This document shows positions 1 to 11,980 of a stretch of DNA of 11,980 bases, one piece after another. Both the position numbers and the translations under genes were made by a program. Numbering within the stretch: position 1 is the first letter of the stretch; each line of letters opens with the position of its first letter. The notes below the pieces were generated by a model. It was not told the origin of the DNA. It saw only the letters and a list, made by a program, of their open reading frames with translations, and did not search any database. Source of the DNA: a virus (Duplodnaviria; Heunggongvirae; Uroviricota; Caudoviricetes); the IMG/VR virus record IMGVR_UViG_2537562191_000041, positions 1 to 11,980 of that record. One strand, written 5' to 3'.

Positions 1-2
1 AA

Positions 3-194
3 GCAATGACTGAATTGCTTGACCGTTACGTTGCAGCCGGTGCGCTGGTTACTCCACGTGACAAATCCCAGGGCGAAGATCCATATGTTGTTCAGGTTGT
101 CCAAAAGGACATCGATCTGTGGGAAGTGTCCTGGTCTGTTTGTCCGACCGGTACAGCTCGCCGAATCGTCGGTAAGCCAATTCTGATGCGCTGA
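3..194 (+). CDS. 3' end of a CDS that probably begins upstream of the window (alternatively a 62-aa ORF from ATG at 6); product unknown
   Basis: Frame is open from the window edge to TGA at 192-194; a GC stem-loop follows 8 bp later; no recognisable motif in the translation. Confidence 0.4.
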   Translation, partial: AMTELLDRYVAAGALVTPRDKSQGEDPYVVQVVQKDIDLWEVSWSVCPTGTARRIVGKPILMR

Positions 195-202
195 TTTATA
201 AC

Positions 203-224
203 CCCCCGCTAAATGATGCGGGGG
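203..224 (+). terminator. GC-rich stem-loop (CCCCCGC / 8-nt loop / GCGGGGG); possible terminator or 5'-leader structure
   Basis: Perfect 7-bp inverted repeat read directly; no U-tract follows, so intrinsic-terminator function is uncertain. Confidence 0.35.
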
Positions 225-238
225 AAAGAGGTTTGAAT

Positions 239-973
239 ATGAAAAATTATACTGCTGATCCTTTTATGCGTGCGATTTTCGGTTCTGGCTGCTTTGAAAG
301 CGGTGATAAATCCACGCAGGACAATAATGATAACGCCATGCTGGAAAGCGCAGGACAGAAAGGAAAGGACACTCAACCAAAGCCCAAAGACGACATTGAA
401 ACCGCGATGATGGAAGCGGTTGAATCCCGTGCACAAGGTGATATGCGCAGCCTGGCAGCGTCCATGCTTGCTGGTTGGGTTGAAGATGGTGATCCGGAGG
501 CTGACTCATTTGATGCATTAGCAATCACTATGGCTGGCCTGGCTGATATCGATGAAGACACCGATTTCACCGATGAGCAAATCGATGCTTATAACGATGC
601 TCTCGCAGCTCTTGCTGATGCAGCTGTTGCGCTTGGCGCTGATCAGGACGATGTAACCGAAATGATCGACGATGAAGATGACTCAGCTGCCGAACGTGTT
701 TATGACGCTCTTTCCGAAAGCGACACCGACATGATGGAAACAGCTATTGCCATTTACACCGTTGCTGGTGGTGATAGCGCAATGCTGGAAGCGGTACGTA
801 AAAAAGTGGTTCGTGATGGCAAGGTTACCATCATCCGTAAACGCCCGCGTCCTCGCCGCATGACGTCATTGCAAAAACAGGCGCTGAAAAAAGCACGCCG
901 CAAAGCACATACATCCGTAGCGAATATCAACCGCAAAAAATCAATGCGCATTCGCAAAAAACGCGGTTTGTAA
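239..973 (+). CDS. hypothetical protein: D/E-rich body with a strongly basic (K/R-rich) C-terminal tail of about 50 residues
   Basis: ATG at 239 preceded by AAAGAGG (225-231) at 7-nt spacing; the ORF-track start at 233 is TTG two codons upstream. Composition read from translation (e.g. IDEDTDFTDEQIDAYNDALAALADAA then RKRPRPRR...KKARRKA...RIRKKRGL). Confidence 0.7.
   Translation: MKNYTADPFMRAIFGSGCFESGDKSTQDNNDNAMLESAGQKGKDTQPKPKDDIETAMMEAVESRAQGDMRSLAASMLAGWVEDGDPEADSFDALAITMAGLADIDEDTDFTDEQIDAYNDALAALADAAVALGADQDDVTEMIDDEDDSAAERVYDALSESDTDMMETAIAIYTVAGGDSAMLEAVRKKVVRDGKVTIIRKRPRPRRMTSLQKQALKKARRKAHTSVANINRKKSMRIRKKRGL
764..771 (+). other. Chi site (5'-GCTGGTGG-3')
   Basis: Exact octamer read on the + strand. 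Confidence 0.6.
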
Positions 974-980
974 GTGACAC

Positions 981-1002
981 AGGCCACCTGCAAAGGTGGC
1001 CT
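981..1002 (+). terminator. hairpin (AGGCCACC / 6-nt loop / GGTGGCCT) just downstream of the 239-973 stop; possible terminator or RNA-stability element
   Basis: Perfect 8-bp inverted repeat read directly; no U-tract. Confidence 0.35.
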
Positions 1003-1022
1003 CTACCTGGGAGAAATAGCGT

Positions 1023-1613
1023 TTGATTTGCGGCGCGATAATGCCTGACGGAATAAGTCCGTTAATGAAGGTTTATATCCTCTCTTCAGAGGATATGGTC
1101 GTCGGTTATATCGGTGAAGGATCTACCGCAGAACTGTCATCAATGTGGCAATCACCATTTGAAAACCAGTCAGTAGGAGGTTTGCTTGGCGGTATTAGCG
1201 CTGCGGCTGGCTCTCTTGCAGATACGCTTCAGACCGCAACCGGCGTAACAACAAAAACCCTCTTCAACTCAATGCTTGTTTGGGAAGGTCAGCAACCGCC
1301 TGAATTTAATCTGGTAATTGATTTCATGGCGACAACGAACGCGCAACTTGAAGTGAACGCAGCCATTACAGCATTGCTGAAGATGGAATCGCCGGAACTG
1401 AACAATGTAGCGCCATTCGGTCGTCGCCCGGAGACAGTAACGTTAAACATAGGTAGGAACATAGCCCTTACCGACGTTGTTATCAAAAGCGTGAGTTACC
1501 AACTGGACGCCCCGCGCACACCGGAAGGCTATTTCACTCATAACACGGTAACCCTGCAATGCAGCGGTAACACATCGATCAACCGTAGCAATATCTCATC
1601 TGTTTTTGTGTAG
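1023..1613 (+). CDS. hypothetical protein, possibly virion-structural (beta-rich, Gly/Ala-rich segment); start codon uncertain (TTG 1023, ATG 1041 or ATG 1065)
   Basis: Long ORF; its stop TAG 1611-1613 overlaps the AGGAG Shine-Dalgarno of the next gene, an operon-like arrangement; GGGAG at 1009-1013 would serve the TTG at 1023. Confidence 0.55.
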   Translation: MICGAIMPDGISPLMKVYILSSEDMVVGYIGEGSTAELSSMWQSPFENQSVGGLLGGISAAAGSLADTLQTATGVTTKTLFNSMLVWEGQQPPEFNLVIDFMATTNAQLEVNAAITALLKMESPELNNVAPFGRRPETVTLNIGRNIALTDVVIKSVSYQLDAPRTPEGYFTHNTVTLQCSGNTSINRSNISSVFV

Positions 1614-1621
1614 GAGTATTT

Positions 1622-2107
1622 ATGTCCGGTTTTGCAAATACAAAAGCCGATATGGCCTTTCTAAAATCCCGGTTTAATAAAAACCTGGCTGCAGGCGAAA
1701 AACTTATTGGTTCTGAATATTGGATGACCATTAAGGGTTACGAACATCTGTCTGTACTAGTTCGTACAGCTCAGTTACCAGAAATGACACGTGAAGATGT
1801 GGAGGATTACGCCCCTGGTGGCATGAAATTCAACCAGCACGGACCATTACGCAACTCTGGTGAATTTCAGGTCACATGCGCGGAAACTATCGAAGGCGCA
1901 GTTCTCGCCGCTGTAAAACAGATGGTATACGGAAAAGAATATCTGGAAATTACCTTACAGGCGGCGGCTGAATCGAATAGCGGTAACCATAAAGGTCTGA
2001 TCCGCACATATTCTCATTGCAAAGTGTATTCCGACGCCGTGGATTTCTCATCCGAAGACGTAACGGCGGTCGTTAAACTGAACCGCCCCGGAAATCCTGG
2101 AGACTAA
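1622..2107 (+). CDS. hypothetical protein whose native C-terminus has been replaced by an IS insertion; current reading frame runs about 10 codons into the IS left end
   Basis: ATG 1622 with AGGAG (1612-1616) at 5-nt spacing; the IS left inverted repeat begins at 2079 inside the ORF, so the final residues (LNRPGNPGD) are IS-encoded. Weak pattern resemblance to tail-tube-type proteins, not verified. Confidence 0.6.
2076..2078 (+). repeat. left copy of 3-bp target-site duplication (AAC) of the IS
   Basis: AAC immediately abuts the IS left end and is repeated at 3389-3391. Confidence 0.6.
2079..2105 (+). repeat. IS left terminal inverted repeat (IRL)
   Basis: TGAACCGCCCCGGAAATCCTGGAGACT matches the reverse complement of 3362-3388 with about 4 mismatches. 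Confidence 0.7.
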
Positions 2108-2132
2108 ACTCCCTGAGAAAGAGGTAAACAGG

Positions 2133-2459
2133 ATGACTAAAAATACTCGTTTTTCCCCCGAAGTCCGTCAGCGGGCGATTCGTATGGTTCTGGAAAGTCA
2201 GGATGAATATGACTCACAGTGGGCGGCAATTTGTTCCATTGCCCCAAAGATTGGCTGTACGCCGGAGACTCTGCGTGTCTGGGTTCGCCAGCATGAGCGG
2301 GATACCGGGGGCGGTGATGGTGGGCTCACCAGCGCTGAACGTCAGCGTCTGAAAGAGCTGGAACGTGAAAATCGTGAACTGCGCCGCAGTAACGATATCC
2401 TTCGCCAGGCTTCCGCTTATTTTGCGAAGGCGGAGTTCGACCGCCTCTGGAAAAAATGA
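2133..2459 (+). CDS. IS3-family transposase OrfA (helix-turn-helix / leucine-zipper part)
   Basis: 108-aa ORF starting [19 protein letters not shown], recognised from memory as the IS629-group orfA; GAGG Shine-Dalgarno upstream; ends within the A6 slippery run. Confidence 0.85.
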
Positions 2460-3346
2460 TGCCACTGCTGGATAAGCTGCGTGAGCAGTACGGGGTCGGA
2501 CCGGTATGCAGCGAACTGCATATTGCCCCGTCAACGTATTACCATTGTCAGCAACAGCGACATCATCCGGATAAACGCAGTGCCCGTGCGCAGCACGACG
2601 ACTGGCTGAAGAGAGAGATACAGCGCGTATACGATGAAAATCATCAGGTGTACGGTGTGCGTAAAGTCTGGCGTCAGTTGTTACGGGAAGGAATCAGGGT
2701 GGCCAGATGTACAGTGGCACGTCTCATGGCGGTTATGGGACTTGCCGGTGTTCTCCGGGGTAAAAAGGTCCGTACGACCATCAGCCGGAAAGCCGTTGCC
2801 GCAGGCGACCGCGTAAACCGTCAGTTCGTGGCAGAACGACCTGACCAGCTGTGGGTGGCTGATTTTACTTACGTCAGCACATGGCAGGGCTTCGTCTATG
2901 TGGCGTTTATCATTGATGTGTTTGCCGGATACATCGTGGGGTGGCGGGTCTCATCGTCTATGGAAACGACATTCGTGCTGGATGCGCTGGAGCAGGCGTT
3001 GTGGGCCCGTCGTCCGTCTGGCACCATCCATCACAGCGATAAAGGCTCTCAGTATGTGTCACTGGCCTATACGGAGCGACTAAAAGAAGCCGGATTACTG
3101 GCATCAACAGGGAGTACAGGCGACTCGTATGACAACGCGATGGCTGAGAGCATCAATGGTCTTTACAAAGCGGAGGTAATACACCGTAAGAGCTGGAAAA
3201 ACCGTGCAGAAGTGGAACTGGCCACACTAACGTGGGTGGACTGGTATAACAATCGACGATTGCTGGGAAGGCTGGGCCATACTCCTCCGGCAGAAGCAGA
3301 AAAAGCTTATTATGCTTCCATCGGAAACGATGATCTGGCAGCCTGA
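2456..3346 (+). CDS. IS3-family transposase OrfB (DDE catalytic domain); probably expressed as an OrfAB fusion by -1 frameshift
   Basis: 296-aa ORF in the -1 frame relative to orfA, overlapping at AAAAAATGA; contains the HSDKGSQY and [15 protein letters not shown] motifs typical of the IS3 DDE transposase. Confidence 0.85.
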
Positions 3347-3361
3347 GTTCACAGATAAAAC

Positions 3362-3388
3362 ACTCTCCAGGAAACCCGGGGCGGTTCA
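3362..3388 (+). repeat. IS right terminal inverted repeat (IRR)
   Basis: Reverse complement TGAACCGCCCCGGGTTTCCTGGAGAGT pairs with IRL. Confidence 0.7.
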
Positions 3389-3391
3389 AAC
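3389..3391 (+). repeat. right copy of 3-bp target-site duplication (AAC)
   Basis: Identical to 2076-2078, immediately after the terminal CA of the IS. Confidence 0.6.
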
Positions 3392-3433
3392 CTTCTCTGC
3401 GCATTGTTTACAACTGGGCGGAATAATCCCTAT
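3392..3433 (+). other. displaced original 3' end of the IS-interrupted gene 1622-2107 (would encode ...VK-PSLRIVYNWAE-stop)
   Basis: Deleting the IS plus one AAC copy restores the same frame, which continues to TAA at about 3431-3433; a CCCGCC/GGCGGG stem-loop follows at about 3436-3452. Confidence 0.5.
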
Positions 3434-3480
3434 CCCGCCCTTGTGGCGGGAACATCCTTGTTATTGAGTTGTAGGCAACA

Positions 3481-4032
3481 ATGACACCAATTGAATTATT
3501 AGAAAGCGTTAAAGAGCGATTTAATCCGCTGCTTGTGCGTGAAGAAGAAACGTTGAAAGCATTCCTGATCAAAGCTCTGACCACGTATCAGGACAGGGCA
3601 GGGGTAGTGAAAACGTTAAAACTTGAAAAAGCTGGTGGTACTGCAATCCCGTTGCCAGAAGATTATCTCTCTCTGGTTCAGGTTACCGACAACAACGGCT
3701 TGTTGGTCTATTCGGATGAATTATCCGGATTTATTGAATTAGAACTAACAGGTTCAGAACGCTGGCCTTTTCGAATGCTGTATCTGGTTAATCTACGCGA
3801 CAGAAAGCTGGATGAATGGCAAGTGCCTCCTGCAATCATTGGAATGCTGGAGGAATATCTGGAGGCGCTTATCAATGTAAGAAATGTCGCCCGGCAGCGT
3901 AGAGCGTCCATCGACGGGAAATTTGACTACTCCGATCTGCCCGATGAAGCCACGCTATATGCCCGCGTGCAGGAGATTGAGGAAAAAATGTCCTCAAACC
4001 GGGCCATTATTCCGGGGGCTACCATTTTTTAA
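3481..4032 (+). CDS. hypothetical protein (183 aa)
   Basis: ATG ORF with a weak AGG Shine-Dalgarno; no recognisable motif; transcribed in the same direction as neighbouring structural-type genes. Confidence 0.55.
   Translation: MTPIELLESVKERFNPLLVREEETLKAFLIKALTTYQDRAGVVKTLKLEKAGGTAIPLPEDYLSLVQVTDNNGLLVYSDELSGFIELELTGSERWPFRMLYLVNLRDRKLDEWQVPPAIIGMLEEYLEALINVRNVARQRRASIDGKFDYSDLPDEATLYARVQEIEEKMSSNRAIIPGATIF
3630..3637 (+). other. Chi site (5'-GCTGGTGG-3')
   Basis: Exact octamer read on the + strand. Confidence 0.6.
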
Positions 4033-4047
4033 CGCTGGAGGCGCAGA

Positions 4048-4755
4048 GTGAGTATTTTCAGCAGCGTTGGTAGAACGTTGACCACCGCATTGTCATTTAA
4101 CACGAAATCATTCACCAGCAACCTCATTAGCGACATTCTTGATAAAGCCATATCAGGCGGCGGGGTAAGCGGGAATTACAGTAGCGATATTGCCTACGGG
4201 AAAAATATTGTTGCTGCCGCTATGCGTATCCGTTACGCCCAGGGGTGGCAGTGGACCGTTGAAGTGGATGGCCTGAACGGCTTCGATATGTTCGTGAAGG
4301 ATATCACCTACAGCAGTGGAAACATTGAGACAGAAAGCAAGGTGATCGGCAGCGTAGAATTCAGCAAGCCAACCTATGTTAGCGCCGGACCGGTCACTAT
4401 GACCGTGAGGGATACCGAAGATGGCAAGATCATGGACTGGTTCAAAGAGCGTCGTTCTCGTGTAACAAATCCTGATGGAACAATAAACCTTCCTCCTGAA
4501 TATCTGATGAAAATCCGTGTCTACCGGGTAACTCAGGACGGCGGAAAAGAACTGGAAGAAGAAATGCGCGTATTTCCTACGCAACTTGGGGAAATCACAC
4601 GCTCACGTGATCAGGTGTCAGAGTTCTTGTCATACCCAATCACTTTCCAGAAATACACATCCGCAGGCTCAGGTGTTTCTGCTTTGGTCAACGGTGCCGC
4701 GGGCATGGCTACAAGTGCGTTAAAGGGGGCTATCAGTGGAGTGATCAAATTCTGA
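4048..4755 (+). CDS. hypothetical protein (235 aa), beta-rich with Gly/Ala-rich C-terminus; GTG start
   Basis: GTG at 4048 preceded by GGAGG (4037-4041) at 6-nt spacing; ORF ends 12 bp before the first incA-like iteron. Confidence 0.6.
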   Translation: MSIFSSVGRTLTTALSFNTKSFTSNLISDILDKAISGGGVSGNYSSDIAYGKNIVAAAMRIRYAQGWQWTVEVDGLNGFDMFVKDITYSSGNIETESKVIGSVEFSKPTYVSAGPVTMTVRDTEDGKIMDWFKERRSRVTNPDGTINLPPEYLMKIRVYRVTQDGGKELEEEMRVFPTQLGEITRSRDQVSEFLSYPITFQKYTSAGSGVSALVNGAAGMATSALKGAISGVIKF

Positions 4756-4767
4756 AATGCTTTAATT

Positions 4768-4989
4768 ATGTGTGCTGTAGGGAAAGGTTTACGTTAAATG
4801 TGTGCTGCCGGGAAACCCCATTGCTCAAGATGTGTTGTAGAGGGAATGGTAATGGCAACATGTGTGCTGGAGGGGAATTTCGCATGTAAAGAGCGTCATT
4901 TATCCCGCCAGCACACATCTGAACTAAGCAATCCTCTGAAATTCCCTCCACCACACATCCAGACATGAAACTATCCCTTCAGCACACAT
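4768..4989. repeat. incA-like iteron array downstream of repA: seven copies of the ATGTGTGCTGnnGGGAA-type repeat, four in one orientation and three inverted
   Basis: Iteron cores read at 4768, 4798, 4830, 4860 (ATGTGTGCTG orientation, ~30-bp phasing; the third is degenerate) and at 4909, 4949, 4980 (CAGCACACAT orientation); the last abuts the repA stop. Confidence 0.8.
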
Positions 4990-5850
4990 TTAATCTGTTG
5001 GTTTAAGTTTCGGATTCCGAGAGTGAACGATAATGAAGTTTTCACGACCTTGCTTTTCAATGGTGCAATCGAGATAACCTATTGTTTTTAACTGTTCTAT
5101 AGCTTTTTTTATCGTTCTGTTTTGCTCACTTACCGATGACATCAAGGCTAATCTTTCACGTATTCTGGCAAATGAAATAGGTATTGGACGTGCCGGGAGG
5201 CTTTCTATAAAGGTATATATGGCCTGGGCTGCTTCTTTTTTAGGTAAAGCGCGAAGTGCGTGTTGCTGTAGAAGCACCCGATAGTCTAGCTGGAAGATTT
5301 CCCATAACTTGGAATCAGCCTCCAGTTCAACGACATCTGTTTCAAAGCCAAAATATCCCGTTTTAAGCAGGCCAGTATTGTAGCTTCCACGAGCACTTTT
5401 CCCTCTTTTGAATGAGATGCCTTTGTTGCGTAACCGACCTAAAGAATCGTGGATCGTGTTTCTTAATTTCCCATCAAGTCGCTTAGATGGAAATCCGCAC
5501 GCCTTTGCAAATTCTTGAAAAGAAAGGCGAATTGTATTCGATGATAAGCCATACTTGCTAAATGAGTAGATTACCCCAATCCAGACTTTGAAATCAGTAT
5601 CCATGTCCAAGCGAGGGCCAGTGATCTTGATGTTGTCGTAGCCTTCTGCTTGAGCTATTTCCAGTTTGGAAAAAACAGATGATGCATCTATCTCGTTGTT
5701 TTCACCCTGTTTTTTAGTTGGTTTAGGGACGAAAACACCAAGCCGCATAAGTGCGACAGGTTGAACAGTATTGTTCGAATTAACTGTTAATTCTTTAGCC
5801 TTGCTTTCAATGTCAGCATAAAGAATATCAGAGATAAATGACTTATCCAT
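4990..5850 (-). CDS. repA: iteron-binding replication initiator RepA, P1 / RepFIB family
   Basis: 286-aa ORF (from ATG at 5850; the ORF track starts one codon earlier at TTG 5853) flanked on both sides by repeats matching the P1-type 19-bp iteron; the N-terminus MDKSFISDILYADIESKAKE resembles my memory of P1 RepA. Confidence 0.9.
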   Translation of the reverse strand: MDKSFISDILYADIESKAKELTVNSNNTVQPVALMRLGVFVPKPTKKQGENNEIDASSVFSKLEIAQAEGYDNIKITGPRLDMDTDFKVWIGVIYSFSKYGLSSNTIRLSFQEFAKACGFPSKRLDGKLRNTIHDSLGRLRNKGISFKRGKSARGSYNTGLLKTGYFGFETDVVELEADSKLWEIFQLDYRVLLQQHALRALPKKEAAQAIYTFIESLPARPIPISFARIRERLALMSSVSEQNRTIKKAIEQLKTIGYLDCTIEKQGRENFIIVHSRNPKLKPTD

Positions 5851-5908
5851 CAATAAGTTACCGTCATGTTGTGAATAAAGTTTACGACAGTGGATATCCG
5901 GCTTTTTT

Positions 5909-6011
5909 TCCCGTCAGCACACATCCTACATCCCGTCAGCACACATGTAAAACCCTCCAGCACACATATTTTTCCCGTCAGCACACATCATTTTCCCTCC
6001 AGCACACATCT
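5909..6011. repeat. incC-like iteron array upstream of repA: five direct iterons at 21-22-bp phasing, probably containing the autoregulated repA promoter
   Basis: CAGCACACAT cores start at 5915, 5937, 5958, 5979 and 6000, all in the same orientation as repA transcription. Confidence 0.85.
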
Positions 6012-6055
6012 GAATAGTGGTTAAAGCCTTATGTGGCGCGGCCTGAAGAGCTACG

Positions 6056-6118
6056 GGATCTATTTGGTACTATATGGATCTAATCAGGATCTATATATTG
6101 GATCTATCCTGTGGATAA
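6056..6118. promoter_or_regulatory. oriR-like replication origin core: four GGATCTA heptamers (each with a Dam GATC site) and a consensus DnaA box
   Basis: GATC at 6057, 6077, 6088 and 6101 inside the repeated heptamer GGATCTA; TGTGGATAA at 6110-6118 is the reverse complement of TTATCCACA; an A-rich tract follows. Confidence 0.75.
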
Positions 6119-6204
6119 AAAAGAAGAATTACAAAGCTCCACCCAATTTCACACACTACCTATCCTCCAACGAATAAACAGACATCTGCTTATCGGAGGA
6201 ATAC

Positions 6205-7026
6205 TTGAACATTCCAAAATTCCCATTGCCTTCCCGTCCTGAGACAGAAATTCAGTTCCACGCCCCTACCGTGAAGGATGCGCTGAAATATTCTGACCTG
6301 AACCCGGCAGAAGATGAGGCAACTACTACAGAGTACCTTAACTCTATGCAGGATGGTGAAATTAACGACAGTGCTTACTGGACAGTCCAGGATCGCAGAA
6401 CTGCCCTTTGGTGGATATTTGTTAATTCGCGCCCCGATGCAGTAATGACTTACTCCTATGAGTGCAGTCACTGCGGTAATACGCATCACGCCGATATAAA
6501 CCTGAGCGATCTGGCTCAAACAGTAGAGATACTCACTGTACCGCCTTACGTAAAAACCAACGTACCGGTAAACGGTGTACCAACTGACTGGATACTTAAA
6601 CCATTAACCGGGAAAGGCGCGGAACTCCTTGAACGTATGCGTGCGTCACTTCCTGATATGAAAAGCCCTGAATACAGTGCAGGCGTGGCCCGTATGCGCA
6701 TTGCAGAACTCGCTTTATGCACGGCACTGGACGACGATCCGGAAGACTTCACTCAAGCAGCTAACCGACGCTTCGACATCATTGAAAGCATGGCGCTTGA
6801 AACCGAGTTTACACCGCTTGTGGCTCGCATACAGCTTATGCAAAAAGACCTACGCCACGGCCTGAAAATGTCTATTGAGAGAGGCACAAGCCGACTGATC
6901 CTGCCTCCGCAACATTGCAAAAACGCTAAGGAGGGTGCAGATGTGACAACCACACTGTACGTCCCCTTTCTCAATAGAGAGTTTATCCCATCAATTAGAT
7001 CTGAATGGATGGCTAACCATTATTAA
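6205..7026 (+). CDS. hypothetical protein (273 aa) immediately upstream of the tape-measure-like gene; possibly a tail assembly or accessory protein; TTG start
   Basis: TTG at 6205 preceded by GGAGG (6194-6198) at 6-nt spacing; the first in-frame ATG is about 47 codons downstream; contains a CSHC pair. Confidence 0.55.
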   Translation: MNIPKFPLPSRPETEIQFHAPTVKDALKYSDLNPAEDEATTTEYLNSMQDGEINDSAYWTVQDRRTALWWIFVNSRPDAVMTYSYECSHCGNTHHADINLSDLAQTVEILTVPPYVKTNVPVNGVPTDWILKPLTGKGAELLERMRASLPDMKSPEYSAGVARMRIAELALCTALDDDPEDFTQAANRRFDIIESMALETEFTPLVARIQLMQKDLRHGLKMSIERGTSRLILPPQHCKNAKEGADVTTTLYVPFLNREFIPSIRSEWMANHY

Positions 7027-7172
7027 CAACCTGACTCTATATGGATATCAGCCCGTTAGCGACGTTGAACAATTACCGCAATGGCGAGCACTCCATATGT
7101 CAAAAGCCCTAGAAGAAAAATACAAAGCTCAAGCCGGGAAACGTTGATCGCGCTGGTAAAAGAGAGGTTATT

Positions 7173-10100
7173 TTGAAAGAGAATAAAGACCGTATCGCAA
7201 TAATTGACGCTATTCAGGAAGCGAGCACAAACGAACTTAAAGCTCTTGCTGAGGTAAAAGACGCCATTCTTTCTGGGGCAAGCACCATAACTCAACAGGA
7301 CGAAAGGCAAGGCAGAGTTAGCAACAGACTATCACGCAGGCGTAAAGAGTACGAGCAAAGTACATCTGATAGCGTTAGAGATGTCCAAACTAACCCATAT
7401 AAAAAACGTCTCACTGCTAAAAAGGAAAGGGCACCGATAAACCAAACCGTGGACCGCGCTATCGTTGCAACGAACACACCAGAAAGTGTTCGCTCCGTGC
7501 AATCACGTCAGACCATCCGAAAATCGGACGGTTTTATACCGGTAGCTGCTAATTCAGCCCCTCTTGAACCACAATCCCCCCAAAGTCTAAAAGGCCCGCT
7601 GCGGGATAGTAATGGACGTTTTGTATCCCAGAAAAGCAATGAGGATGTAGCCAGAAAAAAAGAAATGCAGAACGCACGTAAAGCCGACGCAAAATTACAA
7701 GCTGGCTTTCTCAGAAAGCTAGGTTCCATTATGGGGGTAGATGGCAATCAGTCTTCCAGTGAAGAGTCTTTAACAAATGCAGCTGGTGTCGGTGCTGGTG
7801 GGCCGTTATGGATGGCGGCTCGTGGCATGTACGACATAACTAAAGAGATCACAGGTAAAGCAGAATCTCTTAAAGAATGGGTAGAAAAGGGGAAAAAAGA
7901 AACATCAACCTCGAAAGCGATATCACCAGTAATTACTTATCCGGCGGCGGTGAATTCTCAAAAAGCAACATCTGCAAAAGCGTTCAATAACGCTGTTGAG
8001 ACAAAATCCGCACAAGCAGTAGAAGAGCAAACCAAAATCCTTCAGACCAATGACAACAAAATAATTGATGGTCTGGAAAATGTTTCTGACGAGATAGTTA
8101 AGCTTCGGAAATCAGTGTCTTCTGGAAATAAGTTCGGCTTAAGTGATCTCTGGAAAAATCGAGCAAGCAGAAGAAATAAAATCAATATTGGTGATCGGGC
8201 GGGAAAAAATAAACGGAACACATCGAAAAGGAAAGGCCACAATCTTGGGAAAAAAGCACTCTCCGTTGGCGAAAAAGTTGCTGCCGGTAGCGCTGCAGCT
8301 GGCACTGGTGTCGGAACAGCCAAAGCAGTTAAAAATAAGATCAGCAAACCCAAAGATGTAAGCACTATCAGCGATACATCAAAGGGGATTGCAAAGGAAA
8401 CAAAAAATACTGCTAAGGCCGTGAAGTCAGCTGGTGTTGTGGCTGAAGATACTACCATTAAAACCGGCGAAGCCATTGCAAAGAAAAAAACTGAATCTGT
8501 AGCCCTCAAAAGTGCTGCAAAAATAGGTGTTAAATCAGCAGCATCCACAGCGGCAAGAGCGGTCCCTATCATCGGTTCGCTGGCAATGGCTGGATATGAC
8601 GCCATAGATGGTTACACAGATATAGAGGCGCAAAAGGCAGCCTTTGGTTTAAGTGACGATGATGCTGTATCCGAACAGCAAAAAACGGCTTACGCAACAG
8701 CTAATGTGCTCGATATGGGGGGCTTGGTGTCGGGCGCAACAAACTTGATAGGGAAAGGAATTTCTGCGCTAGGATTTGAAAGAGCTGGTGAAAAACTTCA
8801 GAATTTTGATACCGGAGATATTGCTCGTGGTGTTAACGGTGCAGTAGATATCACCAAATCTGTTTTTGGTAGCCTTAAGGATACATTTTTATCCACTGAC
8901 GAAAACACGAAACAAGTAAAAAAAGCGGTTGAGGATGGCACCAAGAAGACCGTCGATGCGATTCATTCTTTAGGTGAGCAGCTACAAGGCGGGCGTGATG
9001 GTGAAGATGGTGTTGGTGAGCACGGGTATACTTCCCCGGCTGAATTTAATGCCCCTGCCAGCAACACCATTGCAGCGGATCTGAATATTGGTGGCAGCAA
9101 CGCTAAAAACCGCAATTACCGGAATAATAACCTCGGCAACCTTGTTTTCGCTAATCAGGAAGGGGCTGCGCTGGAAGCACCAAATGCAAAAGGTGAACAA
9201 CGTTTTGCGCGATTTAACACGCCTGAAGAAGGGATCAGGGCGCTGGCAAACCAGGTGTCAAGCTATTACAACGGCACCAGCGCCGCTGCTGGGTATCAGA
9301 AGCTACAGACGGTATCCAGTATTATTTCCAAATGGGCACCCCCAAAGGAGAACAATACTAATCAATATATTGATAACGTCAGCAAATATCTTGGCGTCTC
9401 GCCTAATGAAAAAATAGACGTCAGCAACCCAGAAGTTATGACGCAATTAGTTCGTGCAATAGCGACGAAAGAAGGTGGAAACCCGGCGGTTAACAATGAG
9501 TTCATAAAGAATGCTCTTGGGGCATTTAACACAAACACTGGTCGATGGGAGGGACAATTCTCTGACGAAACATTGGCGCGGATTAATAAAATTCAGAAAG
9601 AAAATGGTGGTCAGCTAATTGCCCGCGATTCGCAATATAGTGTTGGTCGCAAGGTAAAATATGCTAATGGAAAATCTCCAGCTCAACCAGTTTTGAATGC
9701 CGTTCCGACAGCAACACAACAGCCAATTGAGGTTGCACAACATGCCCAGGCAGTCAAAAAGCCACAAAAAACAGGCAATCAATCGCAACCGATTAATCCA
9801 GAGAATGTTGATGTTAATACTGGCTCGCCATCAAGTCTGCTTGAGAGATTAATCGCTATAAATGACAGCGGGGTAGGTAATTTATTTGGAGGTGCGGCTA
9901 CCAGCATTGCTGGTACAAGCCTTGGCCTGATTAAGGATTTTGCGTCGGCGACTTCGTTTGGTTCTATATCTTCGCTTTCCGAAAAAGCGAAAGGAATGGA
10001 TCAGGCTCTTACTGAAAAGATATCCAGCTTAACCGGTAAATCTTTTGGATTTCAAAAAGCAAGCCAGGTAACTGATATAAGAGACGCTTTACAAAAAAGA

Positions 10101-10823
10101 CCAAAAGCTGAACGCGATATGCCTTCAGTGGATCTTCTTTCCGGTGTTTCTTCGGCAAGTGAGAGTGAAAAAATCTCTGTAAACTCAAGGGGGATTCCAG
10201 TTTATGACAATGGATACAAGGTAATTGATGGTGAAGATAAGGGGGTGCTTGGCTCTTTGTTTGACTCGTCATTAACAGGTCTGAAACGTATTAGCTCTGC
10301 TGTGTTACCTGCAATTGGCGATAACGTTTCACGACTTATTGGTGGGGTAGATGGCACTGGCATTGTTAATGATTTGGTTTATCAGGCTACTGGGCAGAAC
10401 TCAACAATTGCGAGGGCTATTAGCCCGCTTACCAGGAGCGCCGGTAGTTGGCTGAATAATGGTATTCAACAAACCGCAGATAGCATTAGAGGTATATCAA
10501 ACGAAGCCAATAATGCCATATTTGGCTCTGCGTCAGCCGTGCAAGAACCTTTTCTTGCTATGCCACCACAGCTTCCTACTGTAACAGATCTCGCACGAAG
10601 CGGAATAAGACAACCATTAACTACTGACACTATAAATAACGATCCTGCTATGTTGAAGGCGCTGGATAACATCTGCTCTATCCTGAACGACCTTCTGAAT
10701 GTGAACAAGAACAATACAAAAGGCGATCCGGATAAGGTTGTCAAAACATCGCAGCCGCAACCGCGACCACGTGCTAGCACAACTATTAATGACCCGTCGC
10801 TGGATGCTCTGCTTGAGGATTAA
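7173..10823 (+). CDS. large virion protein (1216 aa), tape-measure / Sit-like injection protein with a globular domain embedded in its C-terminal half
   Basis: TTG at 7173 is the only start codon after the in-frame TAG at 7110-7112 and has AAGAGAGG at 6-nt spacing; long A/G/K/S-rich helical-type sequence with hydrophobic Gly-rich stretches; followed directly by baseplate-type genes. Confidence 0.75.
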   Translation: MKENKDRIAIIDAIQEASTNELKALAEVKDAILSGASTITQQDERQGRVSNRLSRRRKEYEQSTSDSVRDVQTNPYKKRLTAKKERAPINQTVDRAIVATNTPESVRSVQSRQTIRKSDGFIPVAANSAPLEPQSPQSLKGPLRDSNGRFVSQKSNEDVARKKEMQNARKADAKLQAGFLRKLGSIMGVDGNQSSSEESLTNAAGVGAGGPLWMAARGMYDITKEITGKAESLKEWVEKGKKETSTSKAISPVITYPAAVNSQKATSAKAFNNAVETKSAQAVEEQTKILQTNDNKIIDGLENVSDEIVKLRKSVSSGNKFGLSDLWKNRASRRNKINIGDRAGKNKRNTSKRKGHNLGKKALSVGEKVAAGSAAAGTGVGTAKAVKNKISKPKDVSTISDTSKGIAKETKNTAKAVKSAGVVAEDTTIKTGEAIAKKKTESVALKSAAKIGVKSAASTAARAVPIIGSLAMAGYDAIDGYTDIEAQKAAFGLSDDDAVSEQQKTAYATANVLDMGGLVSGATNLIGKGISALGFERAGEKLQNFDTGDIARGVNGAVDITKSVFGSLKDTFLSTDENTKQVKKAVEDGTKKTVDAIHSLGEQLQGGRDGEDGVGEHGYTSPAEFNAPASNTIAADLNIGGSNAKNRNYRNNNLGNLVFANQEGAALEAPNAKGEQRFARFNTPEEGIRALANQVSSYYNGTSAAAGYQKLQTVSSIISKWAPPKENNTNQYIDNVSKYLGVSPNEKIDVSNPEVMTQLVRAIATKEGGNPAVNNEFIKNALGAFNTNTGRWEGQFSDETLARINKIQKENGGQLIARDSQYSVGRKVKYANGKSPAQPVLNAVPTATQQPIEVAQHAQAVKKPQKTGNQSQPINPENVDVNTGSPSSLLERLIAINDSGVGNLFGGAATSIAGTSLGLIKDFASATSFGSISSLSEKAKGMDQALTEKISSLTGKSFGFQKASQVTDIRDALQKRPKAERDMPSVDLLSGVSSASESEKISVNSRGIPVYDNGYKVIDGEDKGVLGSLFDSSLTGLKRISSAVLPAIGDNVSRLIGGVDGTGIVNDLVYQATGQNSTIARAISPLTRSAGSWLNNGIQQTADSIRGISNEANNAIFGSASAVQEPFLAMPPQLPTVTDLARSGIRQPLTTDTINNDPAMLKALDNICSILNDLLNVNKNNTKGDPDKVVKTSQPQPRPRASTTINDPSLDALLED
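7794..7801 (+). other. Chi site (5'-GCTGGTGG-3')
   Basis: Exact octamer read on the + strand. Confidence 0.6.
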
Positions 10824-10828
10824 TACAG

Positions 10829-11203
10829 ATGCTTTATGAAATAGACGCAAGACTTCAAACGAATGAGAGCGGTGTCATTATTGCAGAAGGAAGTACCGCA
10901 GCATGGATGGCCCGACTTGACGAGTGGCTACGAACCCCTGAAGGGAGTGTTTATGGTTTACCCTCTTGGGGGAATCCAATGGAAGAATTTAAGCATGAAC
11001 CATTCGGCTCTGAAACTTCGCACATAGTTGAAGTGGCTATTGAAGGGAGAATGATGAAAAAACTACGACAAGACTTGCCAGGTTTGGATGTGGAGGGGAT
11101 TCGTTGCACATCAATTTCTGAAGATTCTTTATTAATTAGTTTTTATGCGAAAGGTGGGAGCATGGATATTGTTATGCAGAAATCAAGTGGGGTGGGCGCG
11201 TGA
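10829..11203 (+). CDS. baseplate wedge protein, gp25 / GPW-like (124 aa)
   Basis: Size and motif pattern (TPEGSVYGLPSWGNPMEEF...IVEVAIEG...DLPGLDVEGI) fit the gp25/GPW family as I remember it; position directly after the tape-measure-like gene. Confidence 0.55.
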   Translation: MLYEIDARLQTNESGVIIAEGSTAAWMARLDEWLRTPEGSVYGLPSWGNPMEEFKHEPFGSETSHIVEVAIEGRMMKKLRQDLPGLDVEGIRCTSISEDSLLISFYAKGGSMDIVMQKSSGVGA

Positions 11204-11980
11204 CGATTACAGAATTACTGGACAAATTTAACGCTAAGTTAAATGAAAACACATGGTGGTCACGATTTGTAAATAGTCAGTTTGTGCAGATGCACGCTAT
11301 ATTCGGATCACAGCTTATTTATATTGCCCGTACATTTGCAAGCCGCGGCCTCACTGAGGGACTTATTTCAACGGCTACGCGCCGCTCAAGTATTTTAGCG
11401 GTTGCTGAAGACCGTAGTTACGTAGGGCGATTTGTTAGTGCTTCATACGGAACAACGTCTATAACTAATAAAACTGATCGGGATATTACGTTACCAGCCG
11501 GGGCTGAATTGCTTGCCAATGACCAAACACCTTTGGCAATTATTAATAGTGTTGTAATTCCTGCTGGAGGAACTGTTTCTGGCGTAGAAACTAAACAGCA
11601 TGAAGCTGTTAGCGTTACATTTGATATTGAGAAGGAAACTTTATTTCTGACATTGTTGCTTTCCAGAGAGTTAACAAAAGAAGTCTCCAGCCTGGATGTT
11701 TATGTTATTACAGATGGCGTAGAAGAAAAATGGACATATAACCCATTATTTAGAATGTCCAGAGACAAGAGTAAGCACTATTCATTGGCATATAAACCTA
11801 CAGAACAACTTGGAGTCAAGTTTGGTGATGGTTCTATGGGTATGATGCCTCCAGCAGGCTGTCAGGTTCGAATCGATGTTATGGCTAGCCTTGGCGACTA
11901 TACTTTGGCTGAAGGACAAAAGTTAGAACCGGCTGGAAATATCGCTCAATATGTGGAGTCACTAGAGTTTAAAACTGATT
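11200..11980 (+). CDS. baseplate J-like protein, N-terminal part (continues beyond the window)
   Basis: GTG at 11200 overlaps the upstream TGA as GTGA, suggesting translational coupling; frame is open to the window end (about 260 codons); assignment is by position after the gp25-like gene and general composition only. Confidence 0.5.
   Translation, partial: MTITELLDKFNAKLNENTWWSRFVNSQFVQMHAIFGSQLIYIARTFASRGLTEGLISTATRRSSILAVAEDRSYVGRFVSASYGTTSITNKTDRDITLPAGAELLANDQTPLAIINSVVIPAGGTVSGVETKQHEAVSVTFDIEKETLFLTLLLSRELTKEVSSLDVYVITDGVEEKWTYNPLFRMSRDKSKHYSLAYKPTEQLGVKFGDGSMGMMPPAGCQVRIDVMASLGDYTLAEGQKLEPAGNIAQYVESLEFKTD

Follow-up and report, generated by a model that had tools for sequence, protein, structure and literature searches.

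A recent IS629 insertion in the bplB-type tail-tube gene of a D6-like phage-plasmid

Transposase insertions and gene loss have been discussed by Pfeifer and Rocha (2024; PMC10879196) as the events that turn P1-like phage-plasmids into plain plasmids, in a scheme where Escherichia phage D6 falls in the P1g2 group. IS629, whose isoforms are IS1203 and IS3411, is the most abundant insertion sequence (IS) in Escherichia coli O157:H7 and other Shiga-toxigenic E. coli. Published work treats IS1203 as an isoform of IS629, reports target duplications of 3-4 bp, and finds 62% of the IS629 copies of O157 genomes in prophages or prophage-like elements (PMC3271280). Here we describe a stretch of DNA where these two systems meet, positions 1 to 11,980 of the IMG/VR virus record IMGVR_UViG_2537562191_000041 (11,980 nucleotides (nt) in all, hereafter the window), in which a copy of IS629 interrupts the orthologue of the P1 tail gene bplB. 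We put a probability of roughly 0.85 on the reading that this is a recent insertion into a D6-like phage-plasmid, that the hybrid tail-tube subunit now encoded is non-functional, and that the element is inherited as a plasmid only.

The tail of P1 is the closest structural reference for this locus. Two independent cryo-electron microscopy studies built its 53-ring tail tube from BplB, with one hexameric ring of Tub beneath the tube and a gp48-like ring of PmgG below Tub (PMC10304247; bioRxiv 10.1101/2025.07.21.665459). Earlier proteomics had left undecided whether Tub or BplB was the tube protein (PMC9024508). In a genome-wide CRISPR interference (CRISPRi) screen of P1, bplB, pmgG, pmgC and tub were all scored as essential (PMC10695390).

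An IS629 copy in a D6-like phage-plasmid

The window holds 12 kb of an element of about 93 kb. All matches to its flanks around the insertion are E. coli and Salmonella plasmids 87-97 kb in size, with no chromosome among them (84 records from E. coli). Against phage D6 these flanks are 98.5% identical, and the window as a whole is 98.1-99.5% identical over 78% of its length. The order of genes is that of D6: sheath (P1 gene 22), 21, pmgG, bplB, pmgC, tub, repA on the opposite strand, pmgB, sit, pmgA and bplA. Among D6 and D6-like elements, including plasmid pE2863-2, the tail genes share 98-100% nucleotide identity and the same order with the window. The identity to D6, the gene order and the plasmid-only relatives therefore identify the host as a D6-like (P1-related) myovirus phage-plasmid of E. 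coli. Two things set the window apart from D6: the IS in orf45/bplB belongs to the window, and the repA/iteron module at 4783-6148 cannot be aligned with D6, matching pE2863-2 instead.

The inserted element occupies 2079-3388 on the + strand, exactly 1310 bp, with TGAACC as its first letters and GGTTCA as its last. Its 25-nt terminal inverted repeats (left, 2079-2103, starting with TG; right, 3364-3388, ending in CA) are 88% complementary. Between them lie two intact genes on the + strand, and thus in the direction of the tail operon: orfA (2133-2459; 108 amino acids (aa)), with the Pfam domain HTH_Tnp_1, and orfB (2456-3346; 296 aa), with HTH_21 and rve, the DDE integrase core. The two overlap at an ATGA (2456-2459), and at 2414-2530 (+ strand) Rfam places the ALIL pseudoknot (RF01497; 121.5 bits against a threshold of 50, E 8e-32), which in the IS3 family stimulates the programmed -1 frameshifting by which OrfA and OrfB are joined. 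Under the ISfinder rule, an isoform matches the reference IS along its whole length at 95% nucleotide identity or more. Over its 1310 bp the element matches many E. coli copies at 100% identity, as it does the copies in phages CP-1639 and VT2phi_272 that were deposited under the name IS629; copies of at least 99% identity occur in 1230 records, and a match to the element is present in 4253 of 5426 complete E. coli genomes. Identical copies are labelled 'IS3-like element IS1203 family transposase, programmed frameshift' by the Prokaryotic Genome Annotation Pipeline (PGAP).

All the features that define IS629 and the IS3 family were thus found together: sequence identity, TG...CA repeats, two overlapping open reading frames (ORFs), the second in the -1 frame, with a frameshift signal, and a duplication in the range of 3-4 bp. 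By these features the element is a complete IS629, isoform IS1203, of the IS3 family. A first-pass annotation of this DNA, made from its letters alone, had called the element IS629-like, with intact transposase ORFs and matching terminal repeats; the frames and repeats are as it described, and the name can be tightened to IS629. Compared with known IS629, the copy has the same length, repeats, orfA/orfB arrangement, ALIL signal and 3-bp duplication, and the element itself differs in nothing; only the insertion site is particular to the strain. Its identity to copies in genomes where IS629 has multiplied suggests that it is competent for transposition.

The trinucleotide AAC stands at 2076-2078 and again at 3389-3391, flanking the element (neither copy is assigned a strand). 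In the IS-free plasmid pE2863-2 (NZ_AP018804.1) and in phage D6 the same site reads ...GTCGTTAAAC joined directly to CTTCTCTG..., with a single AAC and the gene uninterrupted. These empty sites identify the AAC pair as a true 3-bp transposition duplication, the status already claimed for it in the first-pass annotation, and therefore not a chance match. The insertion target lies 33 nt upstream of the stop codon of the bplB orthologue, and in silico removal of the IS and one AAC restores, as had been predicted, a continuous ORF of 163 aa ending ...VKPSLRIVYNWAE. The present ORF (1622-2107, + strand) encodes 161 aa and has its stop codon within the left inverted repeat: the last 11 native residues, PSLRIVYNWAE, are replaced by nine IS-encoded residues, LNRPGNPGD, and 152 of the 163 native residues are kept. 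The orphaned 3' end of the gene, its last 11 codons and TAA, is stranded beyond the element at 3391-3426 (+ strand).

The age of the insertion was judged against pE2863-2, the closest IS-free relative and our reference for divergence of the flanks. No position differs in the 2078 bp of the left flank, and a contig from the Logan assembly of run SRR387487 carries a further 1642 bp upstream of the window that are identical to pE2863-2. The right flank differs by 5 substitutions and 1 homopolymer indel in about 8.6 kb (99.9% identity). A probe for the left junction found no site covering at least 80% of it in the 5,426 complete E. coli genomes, no plasmid in PLSDB covers more than 89% of the window (89% being the window minus the IS), and a search of the phage collection with the whole window did not find the same insertion. 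The exact hybrid protein is recorded only in AEZU02000067.1 (GCA_000194335.2), which is the window itself, and in the Logan assembly of SRR387487. Because the flanks are nearly identical to an IS-free relative and the junction is absent from the E. coli genomes and from PLSDB, the insertion is young, as the first pass had supposed from its intact transposase ORFs, its ends and the duplication.

The window is the whole of one contig of a draft assembly, and multicopy IS elements are seldom spanned by draft contigs, so that an error of assembly or scaffolding might have placed an IS629 at this site. We give this explanation almost no credence. The site occurs once in relatives and is perfectly duplicated here, over 3 bp, which is the mark that genuine transposition leaves, and the separate Logan assembly, although its run may derive from the same strain, reproduces the left junction exactly. 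Its short-read contig matches with 0 mismatches over 2104 nt and ends 26 nt into the IS; short-read contigs typically end at repeats. On this comparison of sequences the insertion is real, recent and strain-specific.

The interrupted gene and its replaced C-terminus

The interrupted gene corresponds to D6 orf45, annotated as 'similar to P1 gene bplB'. The native protein, restored by excision, matches phrog_1120 'tail tube protein' (E 4.7e-72), and phmmer aligns it over its full length with the PDB chains named BplB (8jan, 9ay2 and 9ay5; E 1.2e-58). An AlphaFold2 (AF2) model of the native protein, with a mean predicted local distance difference test (pLDDT) score of 65, has as its best Foldseek matches the P1 inner tail tube chains 9ay2_A and 8jan_a (E 1e-13); next in rank come tube proteins from further contractile injection systems, and Hcp. 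What the first-pass annotation listed as a putative structural gene can therefore be named: by homology and by its predicted tube fold of the Hcp/gp19-like type, its product is orthologous to BplB, the major tail-tube protein of P1. The two proteins are about 58% identical over their whole length and share both the fold and the C-terminal motif, RPSLRIVYNWxE. P1 BplB differs in its length of 169 aa, in a 5-residue loop insertion and in 2 extra C-terminal residues, and the gene in the window is severed from the motif. Pfam gave no match on the phage proteins except a sub-threshold T4_baseplate hit for the pmgB homologue. The NCBI names for homologues of this gene are out of date, being 'baseplate protein' or 'hypothetical protein' even though its product makes up the major tail tube in the P1 structures, where the product of tub accounts for one ring only.

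How much the loss of 11 residues matters depends on how strongly that segment is conserved. A search among 5.8 billion proteins returned 63 homologues. Each full-length homologue has 163-169 aa, and its alignment with the hybrid is confined to residues 1-152 (94% coverage); the LNRPGNPGD tail occurs in 0 of the 63, and none of them ends early or bears a different tail. The native C-terminus that the first pass predicted is thus the end found in every uninterrupted full-length relative. In an alignment of 24 homologues, the most distant at about 51% identity, the sequences end in the motif (R/K)PxLR(I/V)VYNWxE, with R156 invariant and P153, Y159 and W161 at 96%, 92% and 88%; conservation is slightly higher over the last 11 positions, 0.76, than over the whole protein, 0.71. 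The window ORF lacks the complete C-terminal segment that marks members of this family, and on this alignment the gene is a disrupted member of the BplB-type family.

Structural considerations point the same way. Residues 154-159 form a beta-strand, predicted to be the last, in the AF2 model of the native protein, and the replacement tail contains two prolines and two glycines. The P1 structure reportedly has Glu167 in contact with lysines of the sheath and Asp169 with Lys11 of a neighbouring subunit (bioRxiv 10.1101/2025.07.21.665459); Glu167 aligns with the terminal Glu163 of the native protein from the window. We infer that correct folding or polymerisation is improbable for the hybrid subunit.

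A different outcome would be that the swap is tolerated, so that the hybrid tube assembles, the phage-plasmid stays infectious and the IS is a neutral passenger or at most mildly polar. The hybrid does retain 152 native residues with the change confined to its very end, it too terminates in an acidic residue, and the + strand of the IS has no strong intrinsic terminator (4 terminator-like matches against 3.2 expected by chance). We nevertheless consider tolerance unlikely: the replaced segment is under clear purifying selection at R156, P153, Y159 and W161, its predicted strand gives way to a tail with two prolines and two glycines, no homologue among the 63 ends early or carries another tail, and C-terminal residues are reported to make contacts in the P1 structure.

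Several considerations weigh against the conclusion that the tube subunit is defective and the element confined to plasmid inheritance. The replacement affects no more than 11 of 163 residues, and confidence in the AF2 model is only moderate, its mean pLDDT being 65. The role of BplB as the major tube protein is established in P1 and not in D6-like elements, whose protein is 58% identical. Operon polarity can inflate the CRISPRi scores of essentiality in P1, and any statement that the rest of the element is intact is limited to the 12 kb of about 93 kb that make up the window.

Downstream tail genes and the replicon

The IS ends 90 nt upstream of the homologue of pmgC (3481-4032, + strand; a tail adaptor in P1), which is followed by the homologue of tub (4048-4755, + strand; in P1 the single hexameric ring between tube and baseplate). 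In the native arrangement the gap between bplB and pmgC is only 54 nt, and for this reason the pmgC and tub homologues (3481-4755) probably rely on transcription from upstream. That transcription must now probably traverse an extra 1.3 kb, mostly poorly translated orfB. Insertion sequences within operons are classically polar, and Rho-dependent polarity on the pmgC and tub homologues is plausible. A strong terminator within the IS was considered as a cause of polarity and rejected, as the element has one weak + strand hairpin (2846-2861) and terminator matches at the level of chance.

These observations raise the question of whether the main effect of the insertion is regulatory, with an outward or read-through promoter of the IS driving the pmgC and tub homologues, or a polar block silencing them, and the change to the tube being secondary. 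The proximity of the IS to pmgC, the shared direction of the transposase genes, the short native gap and the general polarity of such insertions would all favour this. A consensus scan of both strands over 1500-5000 found no sigma-70-like promoter, against 3.9 expected in shuffled sequences, and the outward promoter raised in the first-pass annotation found no site there. The right end of the IS was also considered as the site of an outward or hybrid promoter; this is likewise unsupported, the scan being empty and only poor -35/-10 candidates being visible by eye. No convincing terminator lies on the + strand of the IS, and the coding change is direct, falling in a conserved segment regardless of transcription. 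A primarily regulatory effect is in our judgment highly improbable.

The native intergenic gap also contains a 7-bp GC-rich hairpin at 3433-3451 (+ strand), just past the native stop codon. It was set aside as a terminator or late-promoter operator, having a fold z-score of -1.3, no U-tract and no similar motif upstream of pmgB. Statistically undistinctive as it is, it may be a weak terminator or a stabiliser of mRNA.

A replicon lies on the same molecule as the virion genes. A repA gene of the RepB/Rep3 type is encoded at 4990-5853 on the - strand, amid 12 P1-like iterons (four at 4768-4877, three inverted at 4900-4994 and five, spaced 21-22 bp apart, at 5906-6014), with a cluster of GATC sites at 6060-6110. 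By its recognisable parts the P1-type replicon at 4768-6110 is intact in the window. Every other ORF of the window is as long as its counterpart in D6 or pE2863-2.

This replicon module (4783-6148) sits inside the tail-gene cluster and aligns with neither D6 nor the ETEC6335 plasmid discussed below, while the tail genes on either side of it are 98-99.5% identical. It looks like a replication or incompatibility swap, with rep_cluster_2221 against 1704 and a RepA of 286 against 251 aa. A further difference concerns the reference plasmid: at about 12660 of pE2863-2 (about 10972 of the window) a deletion from G5 to G4 frameshifts the pmgA homologue, which is intact in the window and in D6. In P1, pmgA was scored essential. 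The deletion may be a real lesion or a homopolymer sequencing error.

From phage-plasmid towards plasmid

We propose the following sequence of events. IS629 would have transposed from another copy in the host into the tube gene by the IS3-family route, with an OrfAB transposase made by -1 frameshifting and a target duplication of 3 bp, creating the AAC pair. The gene now encodes tube residues 1-152 and then nine residues specified by the left inverted repeat, and a hybrid subunit without the conserved C-terminal strand would fail to polymerise into a working tube. Reduced expression of the pmgC and tub homologues would possibly worsen the tail defect. Assembly of the tail, and hence infectivity, would probably be lost, while the DNA would persist as a plasmid through the intact P1-type repA/iteron replicon. 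With a defective tube subunit no infectious virions would form, and inheritance would therefore be as a plasmid only; an element defective as a phage and kept as a plasmid is the most likely state.

It is a separate question whether the loss was favoured. The insertion could be a selected first step from phage-plasmid to plain plasmid, with lytic spread given up and the replicon and cargo kept, or the hybrid subunit could act as a dominant negative against superinfecting phages of the D6/P1 type. We regard either form of this idea as very unlikely. The plainer account, in which IS629 damaged the tube gene and the replicon carries the element on, has close parallels in the IS-mediated decay of prophages and phage-plasmids, where the insertion of a transposase likewise inactivates a gene required for horizontal transfer and leaves a plasmid-only element. 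Whereas extensive decay of phage-plasmids involves broad gene loss, the window shows, within its 12 kb, what is apparently a single fresh lesion.

Related plasmids carry comparable insertions. In pE2855-2 (NZ_AP018798.1), which shares with pE2863-2 its origin in a Japanese collection of bovine strains, an identical IS629 at 5870-7310 truncates the tape-measure gene of a different phage-plasmid. That pE2855-2 might be the same plasmid was ruled out, since it carries tRNA genes and homologues of dam and rdgC; insertions of IS629 in the tail genes of phage-plasmids therefore recur. In the D6-like ETEC6335 plasmid (NZ_CP122593.1) an IS66-family element (tnpA, tnpB and tnpC) lies at 6392-8980 between the homologues of pmgB and sit. 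Here the annotation of sit, the tape measure and transglycosylase gene, bears on the outcome: D6 is annotated with a frame of 3783 nt that starts directly after pmgB (D6 8803-12585), while PGAP and the ORF list begin the gene at a TTG, which makes it 3651 nt long (7173-10823 of the window). The IS66-family element may fall within the longer frame annotated in D6. A different pattern is seen in the D6-like FWSEC0003 plasmid (NZ_CP031917.1), where nearly all tail genes are split into short 'hypothetical' ORFs; uncorrected long-read indel errors are a likelier cause than real decay.

The wider significance of the insertion is small, and it is an ordinary event of a well-known kind. Every component of it is already known: IS629, the D6-like phage-plasmid, the BplB tube protein, and the disruption of prophages by IS elements in Shiga-toxigenic E. 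coli. It carries a warning for annotation, in that a 161-aa 'hypothetical protein' here is a truncated tail-tube gene and the 'baseplate protein' (bplB) of these plasmids is the major tail tube. The junction can also serve as a strain marker, in the way that IS629 sites are used in O157 typing (PMC3271280). For the biology of phage-plasmids, the locus offers a clean and datable case in which an IS would have disabled a virion gene while the rest of the visible sequence stayed intact. As such it would represent a first step on the route from phage-plasmid to plasmid that has been proposed (PMC10879196), and a snapshot of decay at an early stage.

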